A DNA stretch of 64,000 bases from a virus, in IMG/VR virus record IMGVR_UViG_3300015263_000599, positions 30,453 to 94,452 of that record; one strand, given 5' to 3'. A program made the position numbers and the translations under genes. Positions within the stretch are counted from its first letter, which is position 1. The number at the start of each line of letters is the position of its first letter. Below are positions 1,656 through 50,300 of this stretch, piece by piece. Under the pieces are notes generated by a model. The model was given only the letters and a program-made list of their open reading frames with translations. It did no database searches and was not told the DNA's origin.

Positions 1656-2146
1656 TGGTTTCATTCCGAAAATTGGAACGGGCCGACTTACCCCGACTTC
1701 TGAGCCTCAAGCTGGAGAGTTTTGAGACGACACACCATGTCACGATTGCGAACATGGAAGATCAGGAACGCTGGTTCAATTCTCTCGACCATCACGTTCA
1801 CACACCACGCAGTCTTGCGTTGATTGGTTCCTCAGAAGAGGCGTCTGATTTCGGTCTCATCAAAGTCACGGGAATCGACTGGGTAAGCCGCTCGGCTGAT
1901 CTGGCTTGGGATGTGTTCAAGGAGCACCGTGGCAAAGGTCTTGGCAAGCCACTTGTCACGGCTGGCGTCCGGTACTGCTTCGACATCCTCAATCTCAGAA
2001 GACTGACGGCGGAAGTGCTGGAAAACAACCCTGCCTCCACAAAGTGCGCACTTGCGGCTGGTTTTGTGCAAGAAGGCGTAAAAAGGGCTGCTGTCTTCAA
2101 AGGCAATGTCTACCTCAACAGCGTCGTTTACGGAGTTCTGAGGTAA
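1655..2146 (+). CDS. GNAT N-acetyltransferase (RimJ/PseH-like)
   Basis: HRGKGLGK acetyl-CoA motif, NPAS..ALAAGFVQEG; ATG overlaps upstream TGA. Confidence 0.9.
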   Translation: MVSFRKLERADLPRLLSLKLESFETTHHVTIANMEDQERWFNSLDHHVHTPRSLALIGSSEEASDFGLIKVTGIDWVSRSADLAWDVFKEHRGKGLGKPLVTAGVRYCFDILNLRRLTAEVLENNPASTKCALAAGFVQEGVKRAAVFKGNVYLNSVVYGVLR

Positions 2147-11705: not shown

Positions 11706-11887
11706 GGGCCAATAGCTCAGCGGTAGAGCACTCGTTGATTTCGTGGAGTATGCGTGACCGAGCTTGGTAAGGTGCGTGATTCTTCACGGTACGGACTTAA
11801 AAAGCCGTGGGAAGTTCGAATCTTCTCGCCAATGCTGTGCGAAATCGATGAGAAGGGGGTGGGTTCGAGCCTCACCTTGGTCCACCA
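11706..11887 (+). ncRNA. Nested double tRNA-like RNA (outer tRNA shell with G3:U70 and CCA; anticodon arm replaced by a long helix carrying a second tRNA-like domain)
   Basis: Acceptor GGGCCAA/TTGGTCC-A-CCA; D arm GCTC-AGCGGTA-GAGC; T arm GTGGG-TTCGAGC-CTCAC; 14-bp helix 11731-11744/11839-11852; inner D-like arm and T arm GGAAG-TTCGAAT-CTTCT. Confidence 0.8.
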
Positions 11888-18675: not shown

Positions 18676-19463
18676 GTCCGCCGCTTCTGGTCTCGGAGCC
18701 TTCGAGGAATCCATGTGGACTCCGAATCCCTGTCGATCTTCCACGCATCCGGCATGTGCTGCGGCTTCATCGTCTTGATGAAATGGATGCGCCAGTCTTT
18801 GGCAAACTCGTTGTAGTCGTCCACGCTGTAGGCGACGGTCTTTGATATGTTGAAGTAGTCTGGCCGCTCCTTGATCTTGTGATCTCGAACGGTCTGCAAA
18901 TCTTCAGCAGTGATCTCGTCTTTCCCAACGAACTCACAAACGATTTGTGTGAGTTCTTGCTTGCGATCTTCGGGAATCTTCTCGCTGTATTTCTGCAAGG
19001 CGGCAGCGGCCCCCATGGCTCGACGGATGTTGCGAAGCTCTTCGTCGGCCACACCGCAAACGGGGATGCCGAGATCTTTGGCCCATTGTTTTTTTCTTTC
19101 GAAGGCGATGCGTTCGTATTCGCCGTGGCAGTCCTCGCAGAGCAAGAAGATGTCTCGAACGACATCTACCTTATACTTCACTTCCATGTACTTGATGTAG
19201 CAGTACGGAATGATGTGATGCCGGGTCAAATCTTCTGTGCATCCACAGACAACACAGAGATTCGGTTTGCCGTTCATCAGAAGGGGGTCGTTTGTTCCCT
19301 CTCGCCCTCTGGGTTCGAATCTGAGACGGATCGTTAGCGGGTCGTAATCGACAATATCAGCCAAGTTCCGGCTGACGTACCAATCGACCTTTTTCTTGCC
19401 GCACCTACTGAGATTCTGTCCATCGGGTGCTTGGATGAGACAGTTATCGAATGAAACGCCCAT
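18672..19463 (-). CDS. HNH-type nuclease resembling the C-terminal domain of eukaryotic EXD2
   Basis: FDNCLIQAPDGQ.LSRC..KK.DWY, IRLRFEPRGR, NLCVVCG...HHIIP...LLCEDCH. Confidence 0.8.
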   Translation of the reverse strand: MGVSFDNCLIQAPDGQNLSRCGKKKVDWYVSRNLADIVDYDPLTIRLRFEPRGREGTNDPLLMNGKPNLCVVCGCTEDLTRHHIIPYCYIKYMEVKYKVDVVRDIFLLCEDCHGEYERIAFERKKQWAKDLGIPVCGVADEELRNIRRAMGAAAALQKYSEKIPEDRKQELTQIVCEFVGKDEITAEDLQTVRDHKIKERPDYFNISKTVAYSVDDYNEFAKDWRIHFIKTMKPQHMPDAWKIDRDSESTWIPRRLRDQKRRT

Positions 19464-20908
19464 CAGAAGTCAATCTTTTCTTTGATGGTAACGCTGTGTC
19501 CTTCTTGTTGCAACACTTCGATTCTCCATTCAGAATGTTTTCTGAGGTAGTCATTGATGACGAACAAGAAGTCATAGTATTTGAGGACTTCTTTGTCATC
19601 AGCAGTTCTGAGTCCACGACCCATTTGCTGGATGACGTTGTGTGCGCCTTCGCCGCCAGCGGCATTGATGAGATTGTGAATCTTGACATCGATGCCAGCC
19701 GTGATGATCGGCTTCATGATGATCGCAATGCACGACTCGCCTTTCTTGAGTGCGTTGATGACCGGCTCCCGTTCCTTCAGGGAGTTCTTGCCCTGAATCC
19801 AGTGAGCCTCGGGCAGCAACGACTTGAGATATTCACCCTGCTCGATTCGCTCGACGACGATGAGCGTGCGACCTTCTAGTGAGCGTGCCAGTCGCTTAAC
19901 GATGTCGTGAAAGTGGAAGTTCTGTTCGATCCCCAGTTTGACTGCATCTTGGTAAGGCTCATATGCCAGATTGGGCCGGTCAATGGGATAGATCGTGCAA
20001 TCGCTGTGGGCGAGGTCTCCACGATCCTGAAGTTCCTTCGTGGTCAACAGACCTGATGATGTGACTTGCGTTTTGAAGACGGGGCCAAAGTAACCCTTCA
20101 CGGTGTACTTGTGGCATTCATCGATCTTCTTCTTGTTCCATTTGAAAGGCGTGGCAGAGAAGCCGATTCTCACAGCCGCACTGCTCATCTTCTTATATGC
20201 TCGCATCGGGATGTCCGAGATACAGTCGTGAACTTCGTCCACAACCAAAGCTCGGAACTTCGGCAGCAACTTCTTGATTGAATCGAAGGTTTGTTTGTGT
20301 GCCGTGCAGCACATCACATAGTTGGGTTCTTTGTATCCGCCATACCAACGACCCAGACCTTCTACGCCCCACTCTTTCATTTGCTGCCAGTTCTGATGAA
20401 CCAAGCTGGCGTTCTTAGTGATAAACAGAGTTGGAGTTTTGGGAGGCAAAGATTTGAGTACAGAGATGAGAATGAATGTTTTGCCCGCACCGGTCGGAGC
20501 TTGTACGATTCCCCGGTTATACTTTAAGCACATGTTGACCAGATCAGATTGGAAGTCACGCAGTGTGATCGGATCAAAGTCAGGCGGAAGCCATTCATTA
20601 AGAAACTGTTGATCGATGGAGTCGTATCGCCATTGAACGGCGTTTCTCTCGTCGATGAATGTATATGGCTTCTTTAAGAAACGGAGAGCGGCCCGGACTT
20701 CTGGGAGAAGTCCAGTCATGAATCGACCAGATTTTTTGTCGAAGAACTCCTTCCATCCGTCCCACTTCTTCCGCTTGTATGCAGCGTTGTGCCAATAGTT
20801 CTTTGGCCTGAAGCGAAGCTTGCGATGGAGGATATCGACCAGATCTGTGTCGGTAGTGATAAGTCGGCTGAAAACATTTTCAGCGTGCAAAACCGTCGTG
20901 GTTGTCAT
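19463..20908 (-). CDS. Superfamily 2 DNA helicase (T4 UvsW-like)
   Basis: LRDFQ, APTGAGKT, VVDEVH, GFSATP, QQMGRGLR, YYDF. Confidence 0.92.
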   Translation of the reverse strand: MTTTTVLHAENVFSRLITTDTDLVDILHRKLRFRPKNYWHNAAYKRKKWDGWKEFFDKKSGRFMTGLLPEVRAALRFLKKPYTFIDERNAVQWRYDSIDQQFLNEWLPPDFDPITLRDFQSDLVNMCLKYNRGIVQAPTGAGKTFILISVLKSLPPKTPTLFITKNASLVHQNWQQMKEWGVEGLGRWYGGYKEPNYVMCCTAHKQTFDSIKKLLPKFRALVVDEVHDCISDIPMRAYKKMSSAAVRIGFSATPFKWNKKKIDECHKYTVKGYFGPVFKTQVTSSGLLTTKELQDRGDLAHSDCTIYPIDRPNLAYEPYQDAVKLGIEQNFHFHDIVKRLARSLEGRTLIVVERIEQGEYLKSLLPEAHWIQGKNSLKEREPVINALKKGESCIAIIMKPIITAGIDVKIHNLINAAGGEGAHNVIQQMGRGLRTADDKEVLKYYDFLFVINDYLRKHSEWRIEVLQQEGHSVTIKEKIDF

Positions 20909-20978
20909 CGCCATCCTTCCTTGGATATGTATGACAGTGTACCCGAAAACGGCTTTCTTGGGAAAGAGGAATGCAGCT

Positions 20979-21007
20979 TTGACCGACCGCAAAAACTGCC
21001 GTATAAT
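20979..21007 (+). promoter_or_regulatory. Near-consensus sigma70 promoter for argS-like gene
   Basis: TTGACC-17 nt-TATAAT. Confidence 0.75.
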
Positions 21008-30381: not shown

Positions 30382-31500
30382 ATGACAACTACGCTGGAAC
30401 CAATTCGTACAACTCTCGCAACACAACTGCCGCCGCCGACTGAAGCAAGTCGGCCCAAGTTCCATGAGGCGTATTGGGCCGTCCTCAACAACAGCCGCCT
30501 CAAACGCATCATCGATGGTTTGGAGCCAGCGACCAACTGGACCAATGCCATCAACGAAGATGTGGCGAATGCTCATCAGTTCATTCGCAACTTCGCCGCC
30601 GACATGTCCCGGATCACCGGGCGTCGAATGGACATCGAAGGCACCCAACGGTTGTTCTCTGTCAAACAGCCAGAACACTCCTGCGGCAGCCTGAAGGAAC
30701 GGCTGGAAAAGGTTCATTCCGAATTCGAGTCTTCGTTCCGATCCGCCGTGCTCGGGATGAAGAAGAACCTGAAATCCATTCGGGAGAAAGAGTGGGGCTT
30801 CATCAAGACGAAGAACCACTTCCTGCCGATCTCCAAGATCGAGATCACCGGCACACCATCGACCGGCGAGACTCTGCTTGAGTCTGGCGGTGCTGTGGCT
30901 GGTTTCACGCACCTCGGCGTCGATCACGTCGTTCGCTCCATCCAGTTCGCCGAACCTTGCTTCAAGCCGGTGGACGACTTCACACGTTCGATTCCCAAGC
31001 ACGCCCAGCGGAAGCTGAAGGTGCTGGAATCGACTCACTACGACTACGAGCCGAAGATCCTCGACGGCGTGCTGGTCTCCGAGAAGGAAGAACAGCGTGC
31101 TACGCCGTTCCAAGACTGGTGTGAGTGGATGCAAGACCCTGCTCTCGCCATCCGTATCGACGGCCCTACTCAGGGATCATACCGGGACGACACGGCTGCG
31201 GCCTTTGACCGCTATGCCATCGACTTCTGGCGTGAGCCCTATCAGGGCGATCTCCAGCGAACTTGGACATGGGCCAAGAACAACCCCATCATGAAGGCGT
31301 TGTTCGTCTGGATGCCGCTGGCCGTCGCCATGTTCTTCGTCGCCTTCGTGCTCGGCAAAATGCCATGGAATGCCGAGGCGTCGTTCCTCCAAGGAACCAT
31401 CGGTGTTCTCGGTGTCCTCGCTATGCTGGGCGTGGTCATCGCCACGGTGATCAAGTGCTGGTCACACACTTATCTTCGCAACTGCCGCTGGCGGCTGTAA
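30382..31500 (+). CDS. Hypothetical protein with two C-terminal TM helices
   Basis: RBS GGAGG; strong codon bias; followed by terminator. Confidence 0.75.
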   Translation: MTTTLEPIRTTLATQLPPPTEASRPKFHEAYWAVLNNSRLKRIIDGLEPATNWTNAINEDVANAHQFIRNFAADMSRITGRRMDIEGTQRLFSVKQPEHSCGSLKERLEKVHSEFESSFRSAVLGMKKNLKSIREKEWGFIKTKNHFLPISKIEITGTPSTGETLLESGGAVAGFTHLGVDHVVRSIQFAEPCFKPVDDFTRSIPKHAQRKLKVLESTHYDYEPKILDGVLVSEKEEQRATPFQDWCEWMQDPALAIRIDGPTQGSYRDDTAAAFDRYAIDFWREPYQGDLQRTWTWAKNNPIMKALFVWMPLAVAMFFVAFVLGKMPWNAEASFLQGTIGVLGVLAMLGVVIATVIKCWSHTYLRNCRWRL

Positions 31501-44900: not shown

Positions 44901-46041
44901 CAGCATCGTGCATGATGCGACCCATCATTTGGTCGCTCCATCGGCACTTGATGTGTTCGCCATCCTGCGGATAATCAACCACGGCTTGCACAGCACGGGG
45001 GCTCAAAAAGATACCGGCTCCTCCTTGAACATAGAACGGTTCTCCGTGCATATCCACAGGCCCGCCTCCGTAATAATCATGTTCTGCAAAGTCGCAATCG
45101 AGCATTCTGCTGACCATGATGTAAGTGTCGTCGTCGCAACAAAACAATCGATCAAACTCAAAATGCTGAGCCACATACTTGATGGAGAGGTATTGTTTGA
45201 TTGGGCAATCCAGATAGGTGTCTCCGCAGTCAATGTACAAGATATCGCCAACCACCTCTGTCGGGGCTCCCGGTCTGCCAACAACGAAGTAATACTGGTG
45301 ATCCAAGTCTTTCAACCATGTTTGTCGCAAAGCCCTTCGTGCCTCATCGTTTTTCTGGCAACTTGTAATCAAGAATAGAAGTTTCATCGATTTGCCTTTT
45401 AGCTGTTTGTATCTTTCATAGTATTGGGAAGACAACAGAAGCTTGTTTGTCTCTTCAGAGATGTTTCCCAGATTCAAATTCTCTTGATAGGAGAGGTGTG
45501 TGACAGCGTTGATTCTTCGCTTCAAAGGACGCTGTACGTCGAAGTATCGTTGAAGGATGGGAAACATCTCTTCTTCGTGGTGAAGAATGATGTCGATTTC
45601 CTTCCACCATTCAGGGACAGCCCAATGCTCGCAATCAATGTTCAGAGATGTTTGGCTGGTAACTTGCTGCTTGATGAACTCATCCAGTGACGGGTTTTCA
45701 ATATCTTCAGATTTTTTGAGTTGGAACCCATAGAGAGAGCAGAGTTGCTCTCTGGGATCACGAACAATCGAGAATGTGAGCCAGCCGTTTTGTTTGAATT
45801 TTTTGAGAAGATTGTGATTCCAGTTCACGATGTGGTTGTGAAAAACAACAGGCGTATGATGCTCGGCCATACAGATTTCTTCCGCTTCTTCTTGCGTCCA
45901 ATCTCTGTTGAGAAGGTATGGCGCACGCCATGAATCGATAAGTTCATATCCATCGCACTTCAACTGCGAGACCGTGTAGACCCCGCTGGTACGCATATGA
46001 TGGATGAAGGCAAGTTTTAAGTGTCTGTTTCTGGATTGCAT
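41884..46041 (-). CDS. Multi-domain glycosyltransferase (sulfotransferase-like, GT31/Fringe-like, linker domain, two GT4/GT-B modules)
   Basis: FIHHMRTSG...IVRDP; RQTWL...CDDDTY...GGAG..LS...SD; two copies of GG.E...IG[YF].GR...K...S..EGF...EAW. Confidence 0.88.
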   Translation of the reverse strand: MQSRNRHLKLAFIHHMRTSGVYTVSQLKCDGYELIDSWRAPYLLNRDWTQEEAEEICMAEHHTPVVFHNHIVNWNHNLLKKFKQNGWLTFSIVRDPREQLCSLYGFQLKKSEDIENPSLDEFIKQQVTSQTSLNIDCEHWAVPEWWKEIDIILHHEEEMFPILQRYFDVQRPLKRRINAVTHLSYQENLNLGNISEETNKLLLSSQYYERYKQLKGKSMKLLFLITSCQKNDEARRALRQTWLKDLDHQYYFVVGRPGAPTEVVGDILYIDCGDTYLDCPIKQYLSIKYVAQHFEFDRLFCCDDDTYIMVSRMLDCDFAEHDYYGGGPVDMHGEPFYVQGGAGIFLSPRAVQAVVDYPQDGEHIKCRWSDQMMGRIMHDAGIEPKYNTRFQMGHEEIVRPISRDHNRVTTSHKLSPDQIREADIDINPFHVFDKIYWLQSDVRRHDEMISQLQDADIVHLVTPFEGDIKDAVRDSKICNAERILILTDQDVFKFHARNLARYLFRDVRDWRLMALGAEAQRGHWHTTNTVKSSGVRKFSGLGIHSEWFDSLLEHEGTIEEWLQGKEVIFPKRIAAVRRHDYFMFPEIVPETEVETPIKCAMIVNNFKRGGAEVEFNEMLTRLDPQKVQWVGLAVESAFQFEISPLYKEKFPPVYVNKKHEDEAIDLDGIHVCDTFEEAVLRACQDADVVVKWHLCHPMVEVLPHPSIALSNAFGRWVLNEYKKIRSNMQVGNSDHSGTLFWNGRARTIYSGHAIERLQTQLGREKQREKWGFGPEDKVIGYTGRVDMNKNLGTVIKAVSLLPEEYKLAFVGQPVRVVFEEVQSMLEQYLPGRYVVDEWSHHVGDALSGLDCFVLVSEYEGFSNSLAEAWMMDVPAVFSRCGAVMELENKYGNIGISTNLGVTPRDLSNYIREAMGEANKPNVEKIGKIIRDEFTIEKSARAWEQAIEDLYKQFQPHKKLKACVLLPNLDFGGTEVWLSTLMKCSQRCLIEWSLVKPAGELKTNPKILEELLPYGKFHLEEEIDMEHPNLFTYKNKPEMNKVFLNSDVIVVWGIEDFANWFPKIDKPIVVISKCHPEDTFHADILEKNAPLATRFAAVSCEAMNAYPEIIRKSVNIIPNGFLPDHTFSDKSKEEQKQAWGLSKDDIVIGFVGRWCKEKNPLALGKVISALPEEYKGVYVGVTHSGPWSCEEEHYKEDMDKFLSREDQERRLKYIDVQHKIGDTMKGIDVLLMPSEKEGFCLVLIEAWAAGVPVVSTNVGVFKDMYQMFGFPFGQVIDPHDGGDVMSHKIKAALEMTPEELLEIKGHVLYRFNGITTAHRWLEYLHGLYTEHKHYSIEPPLSEKLKVLLTKSSPKKVARELNMKGVPVPDGSPEWTYKSVLAFSAAS

Positions 46042-46490
46042 AATGGCTGAAAGTATTGAATCCCGGCAGGGGAGTTCTCCTCATACAGCTTTAACAGAGC
46101 GGACTTTTTCGCAAATTCCTCATACCGTTCCTGTTCTGGCGATTTCGGTCGGCACTTTGCGGCTTCATCATAGTAGAGTTTGTCTTGAGGGTGGCAGACA
46201 TAGATGTCATCGCCTCTGTCTTTGGGCGTGTTGTTTTCATACAAAAGACAGACTTGGCTTTCGTCAACGCCCACAATGGCGGCAAACATCTCAATCAACC
46301 ATGCCACATTCTTCGGGCTGTAGTCCGCATTTGACGGAACTGGAGCGTTCTCGACCTCTGGAAGCGGGAACTCGTAGCGAGAACCGAATCCATGTGAGAA
46401 TTCTCGGTTGCGTGGGGCATCTTCGCAGACCCCATCGCAGTGAAACCAGTTTTCGTGGCCCGGCACATGTTCTGATCCTGATTGTGGCAT
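46017..46490 (-). CDS. Hypothetical protein
   Basis: GGAGGAG RBS before MPQSG. Confidence 0.65.
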   Translation of the reverse strand: MPQSGSEHVPGHENWFHCDGVCEDAPRNREFSHGFGSRYEFPLPEVENAPVPSNADYSPKNVAWLIEMFAAIVGVDESQVCLLYENNTPKDRGDDIYVCHPQDKLYYDEAAKCRPKSPEQERYEEFAKKSALLKLYEENSPAGIQYFQPLCNPETDT

Positions 46491-46518: not shown

Positions 46519-46959
46519 ATGCGATTCAAGGAATGGTTACAGAACGAAGCCGGTCATTTCATGCTGGCAAACCCAGCCAACATCTGGGTTCTCTATCACG
46601 GTCGTCCCGCCATGCTTCAAGGTGTGACGATGGTAGACCCCCGCTTTGAGTTCATGAATGTGCCAAATCCAACATTCGATTTGGATGATCCAAGAGCGAG
46701 AATGGCGCAGGGGAGAAAGTTCTTGGGCCAATTCACTTTCTCATTGCCGGTTGTCGATCCAGAAGGAAAGCGAATCATTCGCTGGATCGTGGTGCCCCGA
46801 GAGAACGGCACAATGCTTGGCGGCGGACAGAAAGCCCATATCGCCGCCAGCCCAGAGGGCGTCAAGGCTCCTCTGGACTGGGCAGATCACGCCGACATCA
46901 TGGATGACAGTGGTGCCATCCCTGCCACTTATGGCGGCAATGTCGCCGATGCAGGATAA
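46519..46959 (+). CDS. Hypothetical protein with MRFKEWLQNE N-terminus (possible virion-internal protein)
   Basis: N-terminus resembles T4 capsid-targeting sequence; TATATA just upstream. Confidence 0.65.
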   Translation: MRFKEWLQNEAGHFMLANPANIWVLYHGRPAMLQGVTMVDPRFEFMNVPNPTFDLDDPRARMAQGRKFLGQFTFSLPVVDPEGKRIIRWIVVPRENGTMLGGGQKAHIAASPEGVKAPLDWADHADIMDDSGAIPATYGGNVADAG

Positions 46960-46961
46960 AA

Positions 46962-47218
46962 GGACTGGTCCCCTGTAGCCGGGATTCTGTCGAGCGTCGT
47001 CATTTATCTCAGTCTTTCGACTGGCGGTTTCCCGCTGCCACAACCCGGCCTCAAAGCACTGCTCACCTGCTCAGCCTGCTCGTGTTGCATCCTCGGTGGT
47101 GAAAGCGACTCCAGCGAAATTTTACTCCCGCCTTCCCAGTCTCCCACCTTAAGCAGAGATGTCCCGAACTTCCTCAAAGGGCCTGTGACGCCCCCTGCGA
47201 CGACGTAGGGACCAGTCC
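46962..47218 (-). ncRNA. rnpB: Minimal RNase P RNA (catalytic domain intact, specificity domain strongly reduced)
   Basis: P1 GGACTGGTCCC/GGGACCAGTCC; GAGGAAGTTCGGGAC; AGATAAATGACGAC; ACAGAATCCCGGCTAC; P4 pairing with bulged U. Confidence 0.88.
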
Positions 47219-47270
47219 AATTTTTGTATTGCACTTTATTAGACGGCAAAAATCAATCCACGGTTCAACC

Positions 47271-47299
47271 TTTACTGAGAATTTTTTGTGCCATAAAAT
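47271..47299 (+). promoter_or_regulatory. Sigma70-like promoter
   Basis: TTTACT-17 nt-TAAAAT. Confidence 0.55.
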
Positions 47300-47337
47300 G
47301 AGGATACGCAATGGCCCCGTCTCAAGGGAGAATCCCA

Positions 47338-50300
47338 ATGGAACCCGGTTACTACCGCCTCATCAAGCCGTACAAAGAAGATGACGACGCTGATGATGCG
47401 TGGGTGGTCGGGCAGCTTGTGTACTTCGTCGGTTGGCATGGTGATCAAGTCCATGTCGTCTATGGAGATTCCGGCTGGTATCTCAGCGAAGAAGAGTTCG
47501 TCGATCATTTCGAATTCGCTCCCGAGGGCCTGCAAGAGCGTCAGCAGAGGATGGCTGATCTCATGTCTGGGCTACACAACCTTGGGGGTCGGACGGACCA
47601 CCTGTTGACGGAACAGCAGTCCCTTCCGGCCCTCACATTTCAAGACCCGGACGAAATCGAAGCCGAATTTGAGGTAGTCTCCACTGAGGAAACCGAAGAG
47701 GCTCCTGAGCAAGAGCAGTTCAACGCTCTCAGCACCACAATGTCTGACCAAATCGCACATGCGGCGGGCGGCATCAAGAAGGTGAAAACTCGGTTGGCGA
47801 CGGTTCGCAAGCAGATTGCTCGACGCAACAAAGAACTCCAGCTTCTCATCAGAGAGCAGGAATTGATTCTGCGTGAAAAGGTCAACGCTCTCACCGAACA
47901 GATGGAGATGGCCGGTGAAGCCATCTACATTCTCAACGCCTATCTCGGCAAGGACGAAGAACTCGTTCGCATCAAGAACGGAAAGCGTGCCGACGCCGAC
48001 GAAAAGCTCGTCATTCGCCAGTTGATTCTGTACATGGATGAAGAGGCTGCGGCGGCTGAGCAGTGGGCGGAACGAGGCGGCATCGACTTCCAGAAGATCG
48101 AAGAGTTCGACAAGTGGGTGGTCAAACCACAGAACCTCGATCAAGTCTGCCCAGAGAAGAAGGGTATCGTGGCAATCAAACCACGACGCAACGACAAATT
48201 CTATTCCGACAATCCGTTCGAAAATGCCGAACTCAACCGGGCCAACAAGTGTCTGTACTTGTTGGTACGGAACGGCGATCTCGTTTACCGCATCTACACT
48301 AGCCTGTGGTTGCAGGATGTGCTCTTCCCTCGCAAAGACGAGTTCGAGGGGTACTTCTACGAACGAGACTACGATTGGGACACACACGAGCGAGTGCGGA
48401 AGCCGATGCGGCCCGGTAGTGCGAAGTACATGGAAGCCATGAAAGCGTCGGACAAGCACCGTCGCCGCTTCTACGCCGCATTACTGCTGATCCAAGGCAT
48501 TCTGGATCGCACTAAGGTTTTGCAGCCGTTGCCGGTCGAAGGTCGGCTCAATATCGTAGACATCCACGAGTCGGTGAAGTATTGCACCTTCCTGCAAGAC
48601 GCCGAGAACCTGTTGGGCGATGGACGGCCCAAGTTCCGAGACTGGCTGGATCAGGTGAATTCCACCATCGGCGTCGGCTCCCGAATCATCGGGAACTTCG
48701 GCGGATACAGCAACGACGAATACACTGCCAGTTGGACACGGGAAGAACGTCGGAAACATCCTCGTTCAGCGAGAAGCCCACGAGACGACTCCATTTACGT
48801 TTTGGAGACGAAGGACGGCGGATACTTCAAATTCTACTACTCCCGTGAAGGCGAGACTGTTTATCACGGTTGGGACGATTGGGGTGGCCGTCCAGCGAGA
48901 AACCGAGCGAGCTTCAAGATCGAGTCGAGTGACCGATTCATTTTGAACTTCGACGCCGCCACCATCGGCGATCTGGAATACTACATCAACTCACGATTGC
49001 ACCGGCATCAGTATGAGACCATGCTGCCGTTGATGAATGTTGCCGTGAAGATGAAGCGACGTGAGGCCAAAGAAGAAGAGCCTTTCCGTTATTTGCTCGT
49101 CGGCAGTATCATGGGTGCTCACGGCGTGAGTCAAACTGTCGCTGAAGATCGCATTGACCTGCTCATCAGTTGGTACAAGTTCAAAAACAAGTACCACCGT
49201 GCTTTGACGACGGACGACTCCAAGGCGTTGCGAATGATCGTCAAGGAGTTCGGACGCCGCTGGAAGCTGGAAAAGCAGCAGGTCGAGATGAAGGAAGATC
49301 TCGATGAGGCCGTCGAAGTTTTGTTGGACGACGAGCCAAACACGCTTGCCATCTTCCATCGTCGAGACAATCAGTACGTCGTGCTCAAGTGGCACAACGA
49401 ACAGAACATCTTTGTGCGGGAAGAGCACTGGGAAGATATCGACAATGATCTCAAGTGCGTGAAGGTCGTCGAGTGGAAGACACTTGACGCTCGGCACAAG
49501 AGTTGGACGATTCTGTGGAACCATCCTCGCTGGGACGAATGGGATGCTCAAGCCAGTGAGAATGAGCACATGTCCGACCCTGAGCGTGAGCAGGCCATGG
49601 CGTATGGCATCAAGGCTTTGGGGAACAAAACCCAGCTACGGAAGAAGGTGTTCGGTTGGTACGACAAACCTTCTCGCAAGGAAGAATGGCTCGCACCGCT
49701 GGCTGCTGTTTTTCTGGATAGCGGGAAAGCGTGTGTCTACTTCTTAGAAGTTCATGCGAAGTTCCCCAAGGAAGGCAGCCTGACAGAGAAAGCCAAGTCT
49801 CCCGTTATGGGGAGATTGATCGTTGGCTTTAAGAAATCAAGCAAGGGGATTGAATTTTCAGTCGAAAACGTCAACACTGTGTCTTGTGGCTATGAGGGCA
49901 AAAAGGCACCATGGAACTTCGAGTACAGCGAATCTTTGGACTCAGGCCGCAGTCTCGCCGTCTGCAAGAAGCTTTGGCAGGAGAACATTGATGCTGCCAT
50001 CGCAGAAGTCCGAGAAGTCAAGGCGTTCAACGATGCCATTCGTGAGAAGCTGAAGCCTGTTGACCGCATTGAAAGACAGTGCCACAAGGTTATCGAGGCC
50101 AAGTGGTGGGAGGACGAATACCGGCGATTCCACGAAGAGTACGATGATCCCGATGACGAACTGTGGGAAGACCACAAGGAGGAAATCAGAGAGCCCGGTT
50201 ATCACAACATTCACCCTCATTGGGTTGAGGGGGTTTTGGTCGCCTTGCTCGAAAATGGAATTGAGATCGACGGCATCACCATCGAAGAGGCCGTGAAGAC

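Follow-up and report, generated by a model that had tools for sequence, protein, structure and literature searches.

RNase P RNA is among the few universal ribozymes and has so far been treated as a cellular gene. In bacterial type A RNAs such as the Escherichia coli M1 RNA, the GGU of L15 pairs with the 3'-CCA of the tRNA, P2/P3, P15, J18/2 and J2/4 provide the surfaces binding the protein subunit RnpA, and the J11/12-J12/13 module of the specificity (S) domain reads the tRNA elbow. The archaeal type T RNAs are natural enzymes without most of the S domain, and the reduced RNAs of Mycoplasma fermentans and of the candidate phyla radiation (CPR) still keep P8-P11. For the type T RNA of the Thermoproteaceae/Pyrobaculum it was shown that this diminutive, natural RNase P RNA is missed by standard models (PMC3579882), and the M. 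fermentans and CPR RNAs, which lost P12, P13, P14 and/or P18, likewise stay under the model thresholds (PMC8172020). Among viruses, the literature searched yielded a single RNase P-like RNA, that of camelpox virus and other orthopoxviruses, which shows some similarity in secondary structure and no pre-tRNA cleavage activity (PMC3001073); full-text literature searches including jumbo-phage reviews turned up no publication on an RNase P RNA encoded by a phage. Here, an RNA gene of 257 nucleotides (nt) is described that lies on the minus strand of a 64,000-nt stretch of viral DNA (IMG/VR record IMGVR_UViG_3300015263_000599, positions 30,453 to 94,452; this whole stretch is called the window and all coordinates refer to it). 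This gene is probably a real, selected miniature RNase P RNA gene of a large uncultured phage, and its product is predicted to be active.

The RNA occupies window positions 46962-47218, so that RNA position p corresponds to window position 47219-p, and its sequence and coordinates match those of a first-pass annotation, made from the sequence alone, which had proposed a phage-encoded RNase P RNA with an intact catalytic core and without most of the S domain. Both structural parts of this proposal hold. In an Rfam E-value scan of 46700-47500 the bacterial type A model RF00010 (RNaseP_bact_a) matches 46960-47216 on the minus strand with 52.0 bits and an E-value of 5.4e-15, and the alignment runs end to end (model positions 1-367 of 367) with the S-domain blocks largely deleted. 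The first-pass annotation had staked its claim on a significant covariance-model alignment of the core, and this is the alignment that was obtained; searching the whole 94-kb record gives the same match at E 1.5e-16. RF00010 is the best and sole significant Rfam match of the 257-nt RNA, and in the competition within the RNase P clan CL00002 RNaseP_bact_a was retained and not RNaseP-T. Moreover, the folding energy of -107.5 kcal/mol (z = -3.3) was reached by none of 200 dinucleotide shuffles. Judged by its sequence, the RNA is homologous to the type A RNase P RNA of bacteria, and its catalytic (C) domain is complete. Other candidates in this region were rejected: weak Rfam matches to mir-263, NiCo and HCV_ARF_SL within 46700-47500 lie far under their thresholds and are regarded as chance, and two minus-strand open reading frames (ORFs) overlapping the RNA (47004-47249 and 46741-47043) have negative codon-usage scores, their tblastn "homologues" being the conserved RNA itself. 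The parts of the RNA are the following:

47207-47218 (-), RNA 1-12: 5' strand of P1, pairing with 46962-46973 over 12 base pairs (bp).
46962-46973 (-), RNA 246-257: 3' strand of P1, with UUUUAU directly after it.
47199-47205 with 46995-47001 (-), RNA 14-20 with 218-224: P2, CGUCGUC/GACGACG.
47176-47196 (-), RNA 23-43: P3 hairpin of 7 bp.
47161-47175 (-), RNA 44-58: conserved region I (CR-I), GAGGAAGUUCGGGAC, holding the 5' strand of P4 at 47170-47162.
47158-47161 with 47088-47091 (-), RNA 58-61 with 128-131: P5, CAUC/GAUG.
47152-47156 with 47059-47063 (-), RNA 63-67 with 156-160: P6 pseudoknot with the P17 loop, CUGCU/AGCAG.
47095-47148 (-): 54-nt hairpin closed by P7 that replaces P8-P14, P7 being GGUGG/CCACC (47148-47144 with 47099-47095).
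47039-47087 (-): J5/15-P15-P16-P17 module, with CAA as J5/15 and GGGUU (47046-47042) as the 3' side of L15.
47084-47082 with 47041-47039 (-), RNA 135-137 with 178-180: P15, CAC/GUG.
RNA 143-146 with 169-172, same strand: P16, GGCU/GGCC.
RNA 148-151 with 161-164, same strand: P17, AGCA/UGCU.
47010-47035 (-), RNA 184-195 and 196-209: two hairpins capped by GAAA.
47002-47009 (-): J18/2 (CR-IV), AGAUAAAU, with A210, G211, A216 and U217 invariant.
46977-46994 (-): J2/4, CUCGACAGAA, followed by the 3' strand of P4, UCCCGGCU (CR-V), at 46984-46977.

Next to the model match, the assignment depends on the comparison with relatives. A working family was defined by a motif pair in P4, GAGGAA(R)(K)UCGGGAC and AUCCCG(S)(Y)U, both of which are present in the window. 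Exact scans of IMG/VR for two core motifs lying 140-380 nt apart on the same strand returned 33 loci with 30 distinct sequences, and 28 metagenome sequences were recovered by a signature of the window's subgroup, in which CR-I and P5 are followed by the P6 strand. Narrower patterns were less productive: CTGCTNAAGGNGGGAGA gave 69 stretches, from which the two-motif screen picked one new member, L149, besides L104, and GGAAGTTCGGGACAN{3,5}TGCT gave 6 stretches, 3 of them chance. From the motif scans and the subgroup signature an alignment, A2, of 33 distinct sequences of 191-300 nt was built, on which the structures were mapped by hand; as the relatives were collected via exact motifs, this sample is biased to sequences retaining CR-I and P6. 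Of all pair cells in this alignment 89.2% are paired, compared to 75.5% after shuffling and 33.9-47.8% with slid partners; 212 cells carry double changes (71 shuffled, 15-58 slid), and the covariation score is 0.415 (0.162 shuffled, at most 0.152 slid). P4, P5 and P6 are fully paired throughout the alignment.

The closest relative, L224, is a metagenome contig of 1.2 kb that differs from the window RNA in 18 of the 233 core positions 13-245 (92% identity). Its differences within helices all preserve pairing (U-A to C-G in P5, A-U to C-G in P17), P3 is shortened symmetrically by one base per strand, and P1 is largely rewritten with 4 of its 12 pairs compensated. P1, with these compensating changes, defines the ends of the gene; a terminal helix of 8-19 bp with differing sequence is found in all 33 relatives. 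Nucleotide similarity to the relatives stops at the borders of the RNA. Owing to the covariation, the compensations in L224 and the similarity confined to the RNA, the pattern is, as read from the alignment, that of a structured RNA under purifying selection and not of a relic. A decaying remnant of a captured bacterial rnpB without present function would fit a score below the Rfam threshold and the deletion of half of the molecule, and full-size forms with the same type of P4 on other viral contigs would fit a series of reductions. This explanation is nevertheless highly unlikely, as it is already contradicted by the covariation: compensatory changes occur throughout, conservation is restricted to the RNA and the flanks diverge, and at least 33 distinct sequences, drawn from many samples, show this reduced architecture.

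Helix by helix, the alignment allowed the earlier description to be refined. P1 with its 12 bp, P2, P3 with its 7 bp, P5, the two GAAA hairpins and the segments GAGGAAGUUCGGGAC at 47175-47161, AGAUAAAUG and ACAGAAUCCCGGCUAC at 46990-46975 were all verified in the sequence as first described. The five inner pairs of P2 are paired to 87% with double changes at each of them, and P5 is always paired with covariation at three of its four pairs. P4 with a bulged U had been noted correctly, yet the position of the bulge had to be moved: covariation places it at U52 (47167), and U51 forms a wobble pair with G240, which is a G-C pair in most relatives. The pairs are thus A49-U242, G50-C241, U51-G240 and C53-A57 with G239-U235. 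All of them are formed in the 33 sequences and two covary: pair 50-241 is G-C in 21 and A-U in 12 sequences, pair 51-240 is G-C in 22 and U-G in 11. In J2/4 and CR-V, C230, A231, A234, U235, C237, C238 and G239 are invariant in 33 of 33 sequences.

The P6 pseudoknot between J5/7 and the P17 loop, a hallmark of type A as opposed to type B RNAs, had been overlooked; it is always paired, with C63-G160 being C-G in 19 and U-A in 14 sequences. P15 had been drawn as CAAC/GUUG, a register that pairs the invariant A133 with a position occupied by U or A and uses up the invariant GGU of L15; here covariation favors CAC/GUG. P15, P16 and P17 are paired to 96%, 95% and 92%, respectively, with double changes in each. 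G174, G175 and U176 of L15 as well as A133 and A134 of J5/15 are invariant in 33 of 33 sequences, so that the bases with known roles in type A RNAs, i.e., the L15 GGU, the J5/15 adenosines and the core of J18/2 and J2/4, are all kept without exception. Of the two GAAA-capped hairpins, GCGG-GAAA-CCGC lies at 47035-47024 and CAGUC-GAAA-GACUG at 47023-47010, the latter in the position of the type A P18. Both are also present in L224, L252, L217, L237, L014, L254 and L283 with different stems and mostly GNRA loops; two GNRA-type hairpins are absent from most other relatives.

Of the S domain, i.e., P8-P14 with the J11/12-J12/13 module, nothing is left in the window RNA except P7 and an irregular hairpin of 44 nt. 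The first-pass annotation had closed this stub by GGUGGGAG/CUUUCACC (47148-47098), a register that is paired to only 67% and shows no double change; the register GGUGG/CCACC (RNA 71-75 with 120-124) fits instead, being paired to 98.8% with covariation at four of five pairs. Above P7 an internal loop is followed by the nested helices GACU/AGUC and GCGGGA/UUUCGC. This asymmetric loop, with GA on its 5' side and G-N5-A on its 3' side, is common to 33 of 33 subgroup members whatever the length of the stub (alignment columns 151-255), its invariant bases being G75, A77, G78, A119 and C120, and the hairpin beyond it is highly variable, with stubs of 29-103 nt in the relatives.

Compared to the described systems, the phage RNA shares with E. 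coli M1 RNA (rnpB, RF00010) P1-P5, the U-bulged P4, P6, P15-P17 with the GGU of L15, J18/2 and J2/4. It differs in its length, 257 nt compared to ~330-400 nt for bacterial type A RNAs, in the reduction of P8-P14 to one hairpin beyond P7, in the sequence of P4 (GUUCGGGA/UCCCGGCU) and in an extra GNRA hairpin before P18. The type T RNA has an archaeal C domain, works with archaeal proteins and is an essential cellular gene, whereas the phage RNA matches the bacterial class A model, and each of the two was reduced independently. The C-domain-only "CP RPR" engineered from the E. coli RNA is a laboratory truncation, whereas the phage RNA occurs in nature and has retained a conserved P7 stub whose internal loop is invariant. 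In M. fermentans and CPR bacteria the reduced RNA is the sole RNase P RNA of the cell, whereas the phage RNA has lost all of P8-P14 and is encoded as an accessory gene of a virus. Finally, the camelpox RNA comes from a eukaryotic virus, whereas the phage RNA matches a covariance model significantly and has the conserved core in full.

Members of this family were seen here solely on viral or metagenome contigs. In 185,579 prokaryote species genomes, one for each species, the subgroup signature gave 11 matches, all of them chance and none RNase P-like. Among deposited or cultured phages neither a 2-kb query nor a member of another subtype found a match, and the 257-nt query matched solely records of an uncultured 735-kb phage. 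In this published phage genome (LR756501.1, also LR756503.1) an unannotated subgroup member lies at ~181.3-181.5 kb (L283:1426-1650, plus strand). Its P4 (GCG/CGC) and P6 (CAGCU/AGCUG) are compensated, two hairpins precede J18/2, and it lies after an ORF and before a strong terminator without a tRNA nearby. Rfam gave no match to it even at an E-value of 0.01, and another member, L023, also stayed undetected at loose E-values; therefore, the absence of an Rfam match is uninformative for the miniature family. Other relatives come from viral contigs that are complete, one of them 357 kb long and bearing terminal repeats.

Furthermore, the phage type of P4 was observed in type A RNase P RNAs of full size, which reach 158-189 bits and thus exceed the Rfam threshold. 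Their neighbors are tRNA genes, and the viral contigs in question measure 83-332 kb:

L074:1102-1400: full-size type A form.
L031:7348-7705: full-size type A form.
L048:3476-3854: full-size type A form.
L087:13508-13836: full-size type A form.
L016:8540-8900: full-size type A form.

Because full-size and miniature forms are both found on viral contigs, phages carry a series that extends from full-size to 190-nt forms. Two larger members, L023:341-682 (-) and L143:5483-5827 (+), have an insert of ~170 nt at the position of the S domain, which starts with GGGGCAU, ends with GGUUCGAAUCCC..UCCACCA and looks like a nested tRNA- or tmRNA-like domain of acceptor and T arm; ARAGORN called no such gene in either locus and Rfam none in L023, the one scanned with it. 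In the subgroup member L235 (~1860-1980, minus strand) the P7 stub holds a complete tRNA-Lys(UUU) gene ~25 nt past CR-I, and more than 400 nt of unrelated sequence precede any 3' half, so that this ribozyme gene appears split or invaded.

Two ORFs flank the spacer that holds the window RNA, one on the plus strand with its end at 46959 and a divergent one of 1040 amino acids (aa) with its start at 47311. That the RNA is phage-encoded, as had been claimed at first, is supported by the viral classification of the record in IMG/VR and by its phage-type genes: the record of 94,452 bp, 67% complete by the CheckV estimate, has a PHROG helicase and other matches to phage families, and its UvsW-like helicase (19463-20992, minus strand) is closest, with 46% identity, to that of the 595-kb uncultured phage LR756511.1, the cultured phages all being below 30%. 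No RF00010-like RNA was found in this 595-kb phage. The record might instead be misclassified cellular DNA, e.g., of a small-genome CPR-like bacterium, and the RNA its own reduced RNase P RNA. CPR RNase P RNAs are indeed diverged, lack P12-P14 and P18 and required lowered thresholds (PMC8172020), and no terminase or major-capsid family was matched on the fragment: Terminase_6N was not found and Gp23 was also without a match, though the Gp23 control matched nowhere. Nonetheless, a cellular origin is extremely unlikely given the IMG/VR class, the PHROG matches, the nearest relative of the helicase, the absence of any tRNA gene in 94 kb, the relatives on complete viral contigs and in LR756501.1, and the subgroup signature being found in none of the prokaryote species genomes.

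Hexamers resembling TATAAT occur 5-10 nt ahead of P1 in several relatives, L099 having a perfect TTGACA-17-TATAAT, and some relatives have a U-tract or terminator after P1, which suggests a self-standing transcription unit. The corresponding stretch in the window is:

47219-47310 (-): upstream spacer abutting the divergent 1040-aa ORF, with a weak -10-like TACAAA 5-10 nt before P1.

For the divergent 1040-aa neighbor no relative was found in IMG/VR. The convergent ORF 46519-46959 (plus strand, 146 aa) has good codon usage and was assigned to no family, its stop lies 2 nt from the 3' end of the RNA, and a weak homologue is in the same convergent position in L252. Further on, the ORF 46017-46490 (minus strand) encodes a member of a small protein family with 28 homologues and the motifs EFPLPEV.NAPVPS, YENNTP and SPA.I.YFQ; neither a Pfam nor a PHROG family matched this product, and its AlphaFold model (pLDDT 78) found no fold match in the PDB. 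In L237 and L217 its homologues are located directly downstream of the RNase P-like RNA. It was considered as a protein partner of the RNA and rejected, as the homologue in L270 (IMG/VR) has no RNase P-like RNA upstream; the neighborhood of this ORF and the RNA is lineage synteny and not a linked pair.

Several observations weigh against the interpretation as an active miniature RNase P RNA of a large phage. The 52.0 bits of the match stay below the RF00010 gathering score of 100 bits, a default Rfam scan of the window at gathering thresholds listing nothing; the low score results from the deletion of the P8-P14/S-domain half. Several base pairs of P4 depart from the bacterial consensus, though they are compensated. 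A consensus scan of the minus strand found no sigma-70 promoter. The record is a fragment, and should the phage be like its 595-kb relative, the completeness of 67% could be an overestimate. Neither an RnpA gene (PF00825 unmatched) nor, by ARAGORN and Infernal, a tRNA gene lies on the 94-kb record; beyond one tRNA-like RNA, the phage thus offers no evident substrate of its own.

Despite these points, the RNA is most likely, as predicted from its conserved parts, an active, elbow-blind RNase P ribozyme that borrows RnpA from the host. Its gene would form a separate transcription unit on the minus strand, and the RNA would fold into the C-domain architecture and bind host RnpA through the retained surface of P2/P3, P15, J18/2 and J2/4. 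During infection it would cut the 5' leaders of substrates with a CCA-bearing acceptor stem, i.e., pre-tRNAs of the host or the phage and possibly also the tRNA-like RNA that the phage itself encodes, and would measure them by the acceptor stem and the CCA and not by the T-loop/D-loop elbow. It was shown that RNase P RNA constructs consisting of the C domain only are active, making pre-tRNA cleavage plausible here, and that efficient cleavage by such an RNA likely needs a P6-like pairing, with P18 contributing nothing (PMC5839562). The phage family displays the same pattern as this biochemistry, since P6 is always kept and P18 is optional.

The RNA could also act as a decoy or regulator that sequesters host RnpA or competes with the host RNase P RNA and in this way reprograms or shuts down tRNA maturation. 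The putative RnpA-binding surfaces are kept, the record brings no RnpA of its own, and the camelpox RNase P-like RNA without detectable activity would be a precedent (PMC3001073). A decoy, however, would need neither the bulged U nor J2/4, J18/2, P6 and the CCA-binding GGU, all of which are invariant or fully compensated in the 33 sequences, and many members are found inside phage tRNA arrays, where processing is needed; such a role is therefore considered quite unlikely.

With an active elbow-blind ribozyme as the preferred reading, its substrates have to be considered. Arrays of 5-37 tRNA genes surround many members of the family, and arrays of 25-37 surround some of the window's subgroup; the window RNA itself is neither in nor beside such an array. 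Similarly, no tRNA was found in the retrieved DNA of the nearest relatives L224, L252, L217, L237, L244, L014 and L283, the retrieved loci comprising 1-12 kb, and the full record of L014 has 12 tRNAs elsewhere. The first six of these loci share protein genes with the window and therefore belong to a related phage clade. On the plus strand of the window, at 11706-11887, a tRNA-like RNA of 182 nt was observed with the acceptor stem GGGCCAA/UUGGUCC, a D arm, a T arm and an encoded ACCA; where the anticodon arm would be, it has a long helix that encloses a second tRNA-like fold. With the tRNA model of Rfam, 11748-11834 reaches 21.9 bits, below the model's threshold of 29 bits, ARAGORN called no tRNA, and no counterpart of this RNA was found in the loci of the relatives. 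It is a possible candidate substrate of the miniature RNase P, for which the first-pass annotation had suggested a perhaps relaxed specificity; the invariant CCA-binding GGU is compatible with this idea.

These observations bear on the idea that the RNA is a ribozyme specialised for non-canonical phage substrates, either tRNA-like RNAs such as that at 11706-11887 or phage and host mRNAs at tRNA-like structures. The lack of tRNA genes on the record and in the seven loci, the acceptor stem, T arm and encoded ACCA of the one tRNA-like RNA, and the invariant CCA-binding GGU speak for it, and the loss of the S domain removes an elbow recognition for which such substrates may not offer the partner. 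On the other hand, the record is incomplete and the retrieved loci are short, the full record of L014 does carry tRNAs elsewhere, the tRNA-like RNA has no homologue in the relatives' loci, and members of the same subgroup in arrays of 25-37 tRNAs point to ordinary pre-tRNA as the ancestral substrate, so that such specialisation appears unlikely. A broader possibility, also rather unlikely, is that one clade of large phages maintains a stand-alone miniature ribozyme, uncoupled from tRNA arrays, whose main job would be other than ordinary trimming of phage tRNAs: it may process CCA-ending tRNA-like RNAs (e.g., 11706-11887) or replace or bypass host RNase P where this is limited or targeted, with the GA // G-N5-A loop of the P7 stub possibly serving as a new dock for substrate or protein.

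As a summary, Rfam thresholds overlook miniature RNase P RNAs, including the member in LR756501.1, and the window RNA adds to them a clade that does not adjoin tRNA genes and raises the question of its substrates. The experiment of a minimal catalytic core would have been run many times in nature, with P6 kept, P18 optional and the S domain dispensable, in agreement with the biochemistry. These RNAs would offer small and diverse scaffolds for studying substrate recognition without a reader of the tRNA elbow. If the assignment is true, phages would carry their own tRNA-maturation ribozyme, which would constitute a new class of viral translation-related gene.

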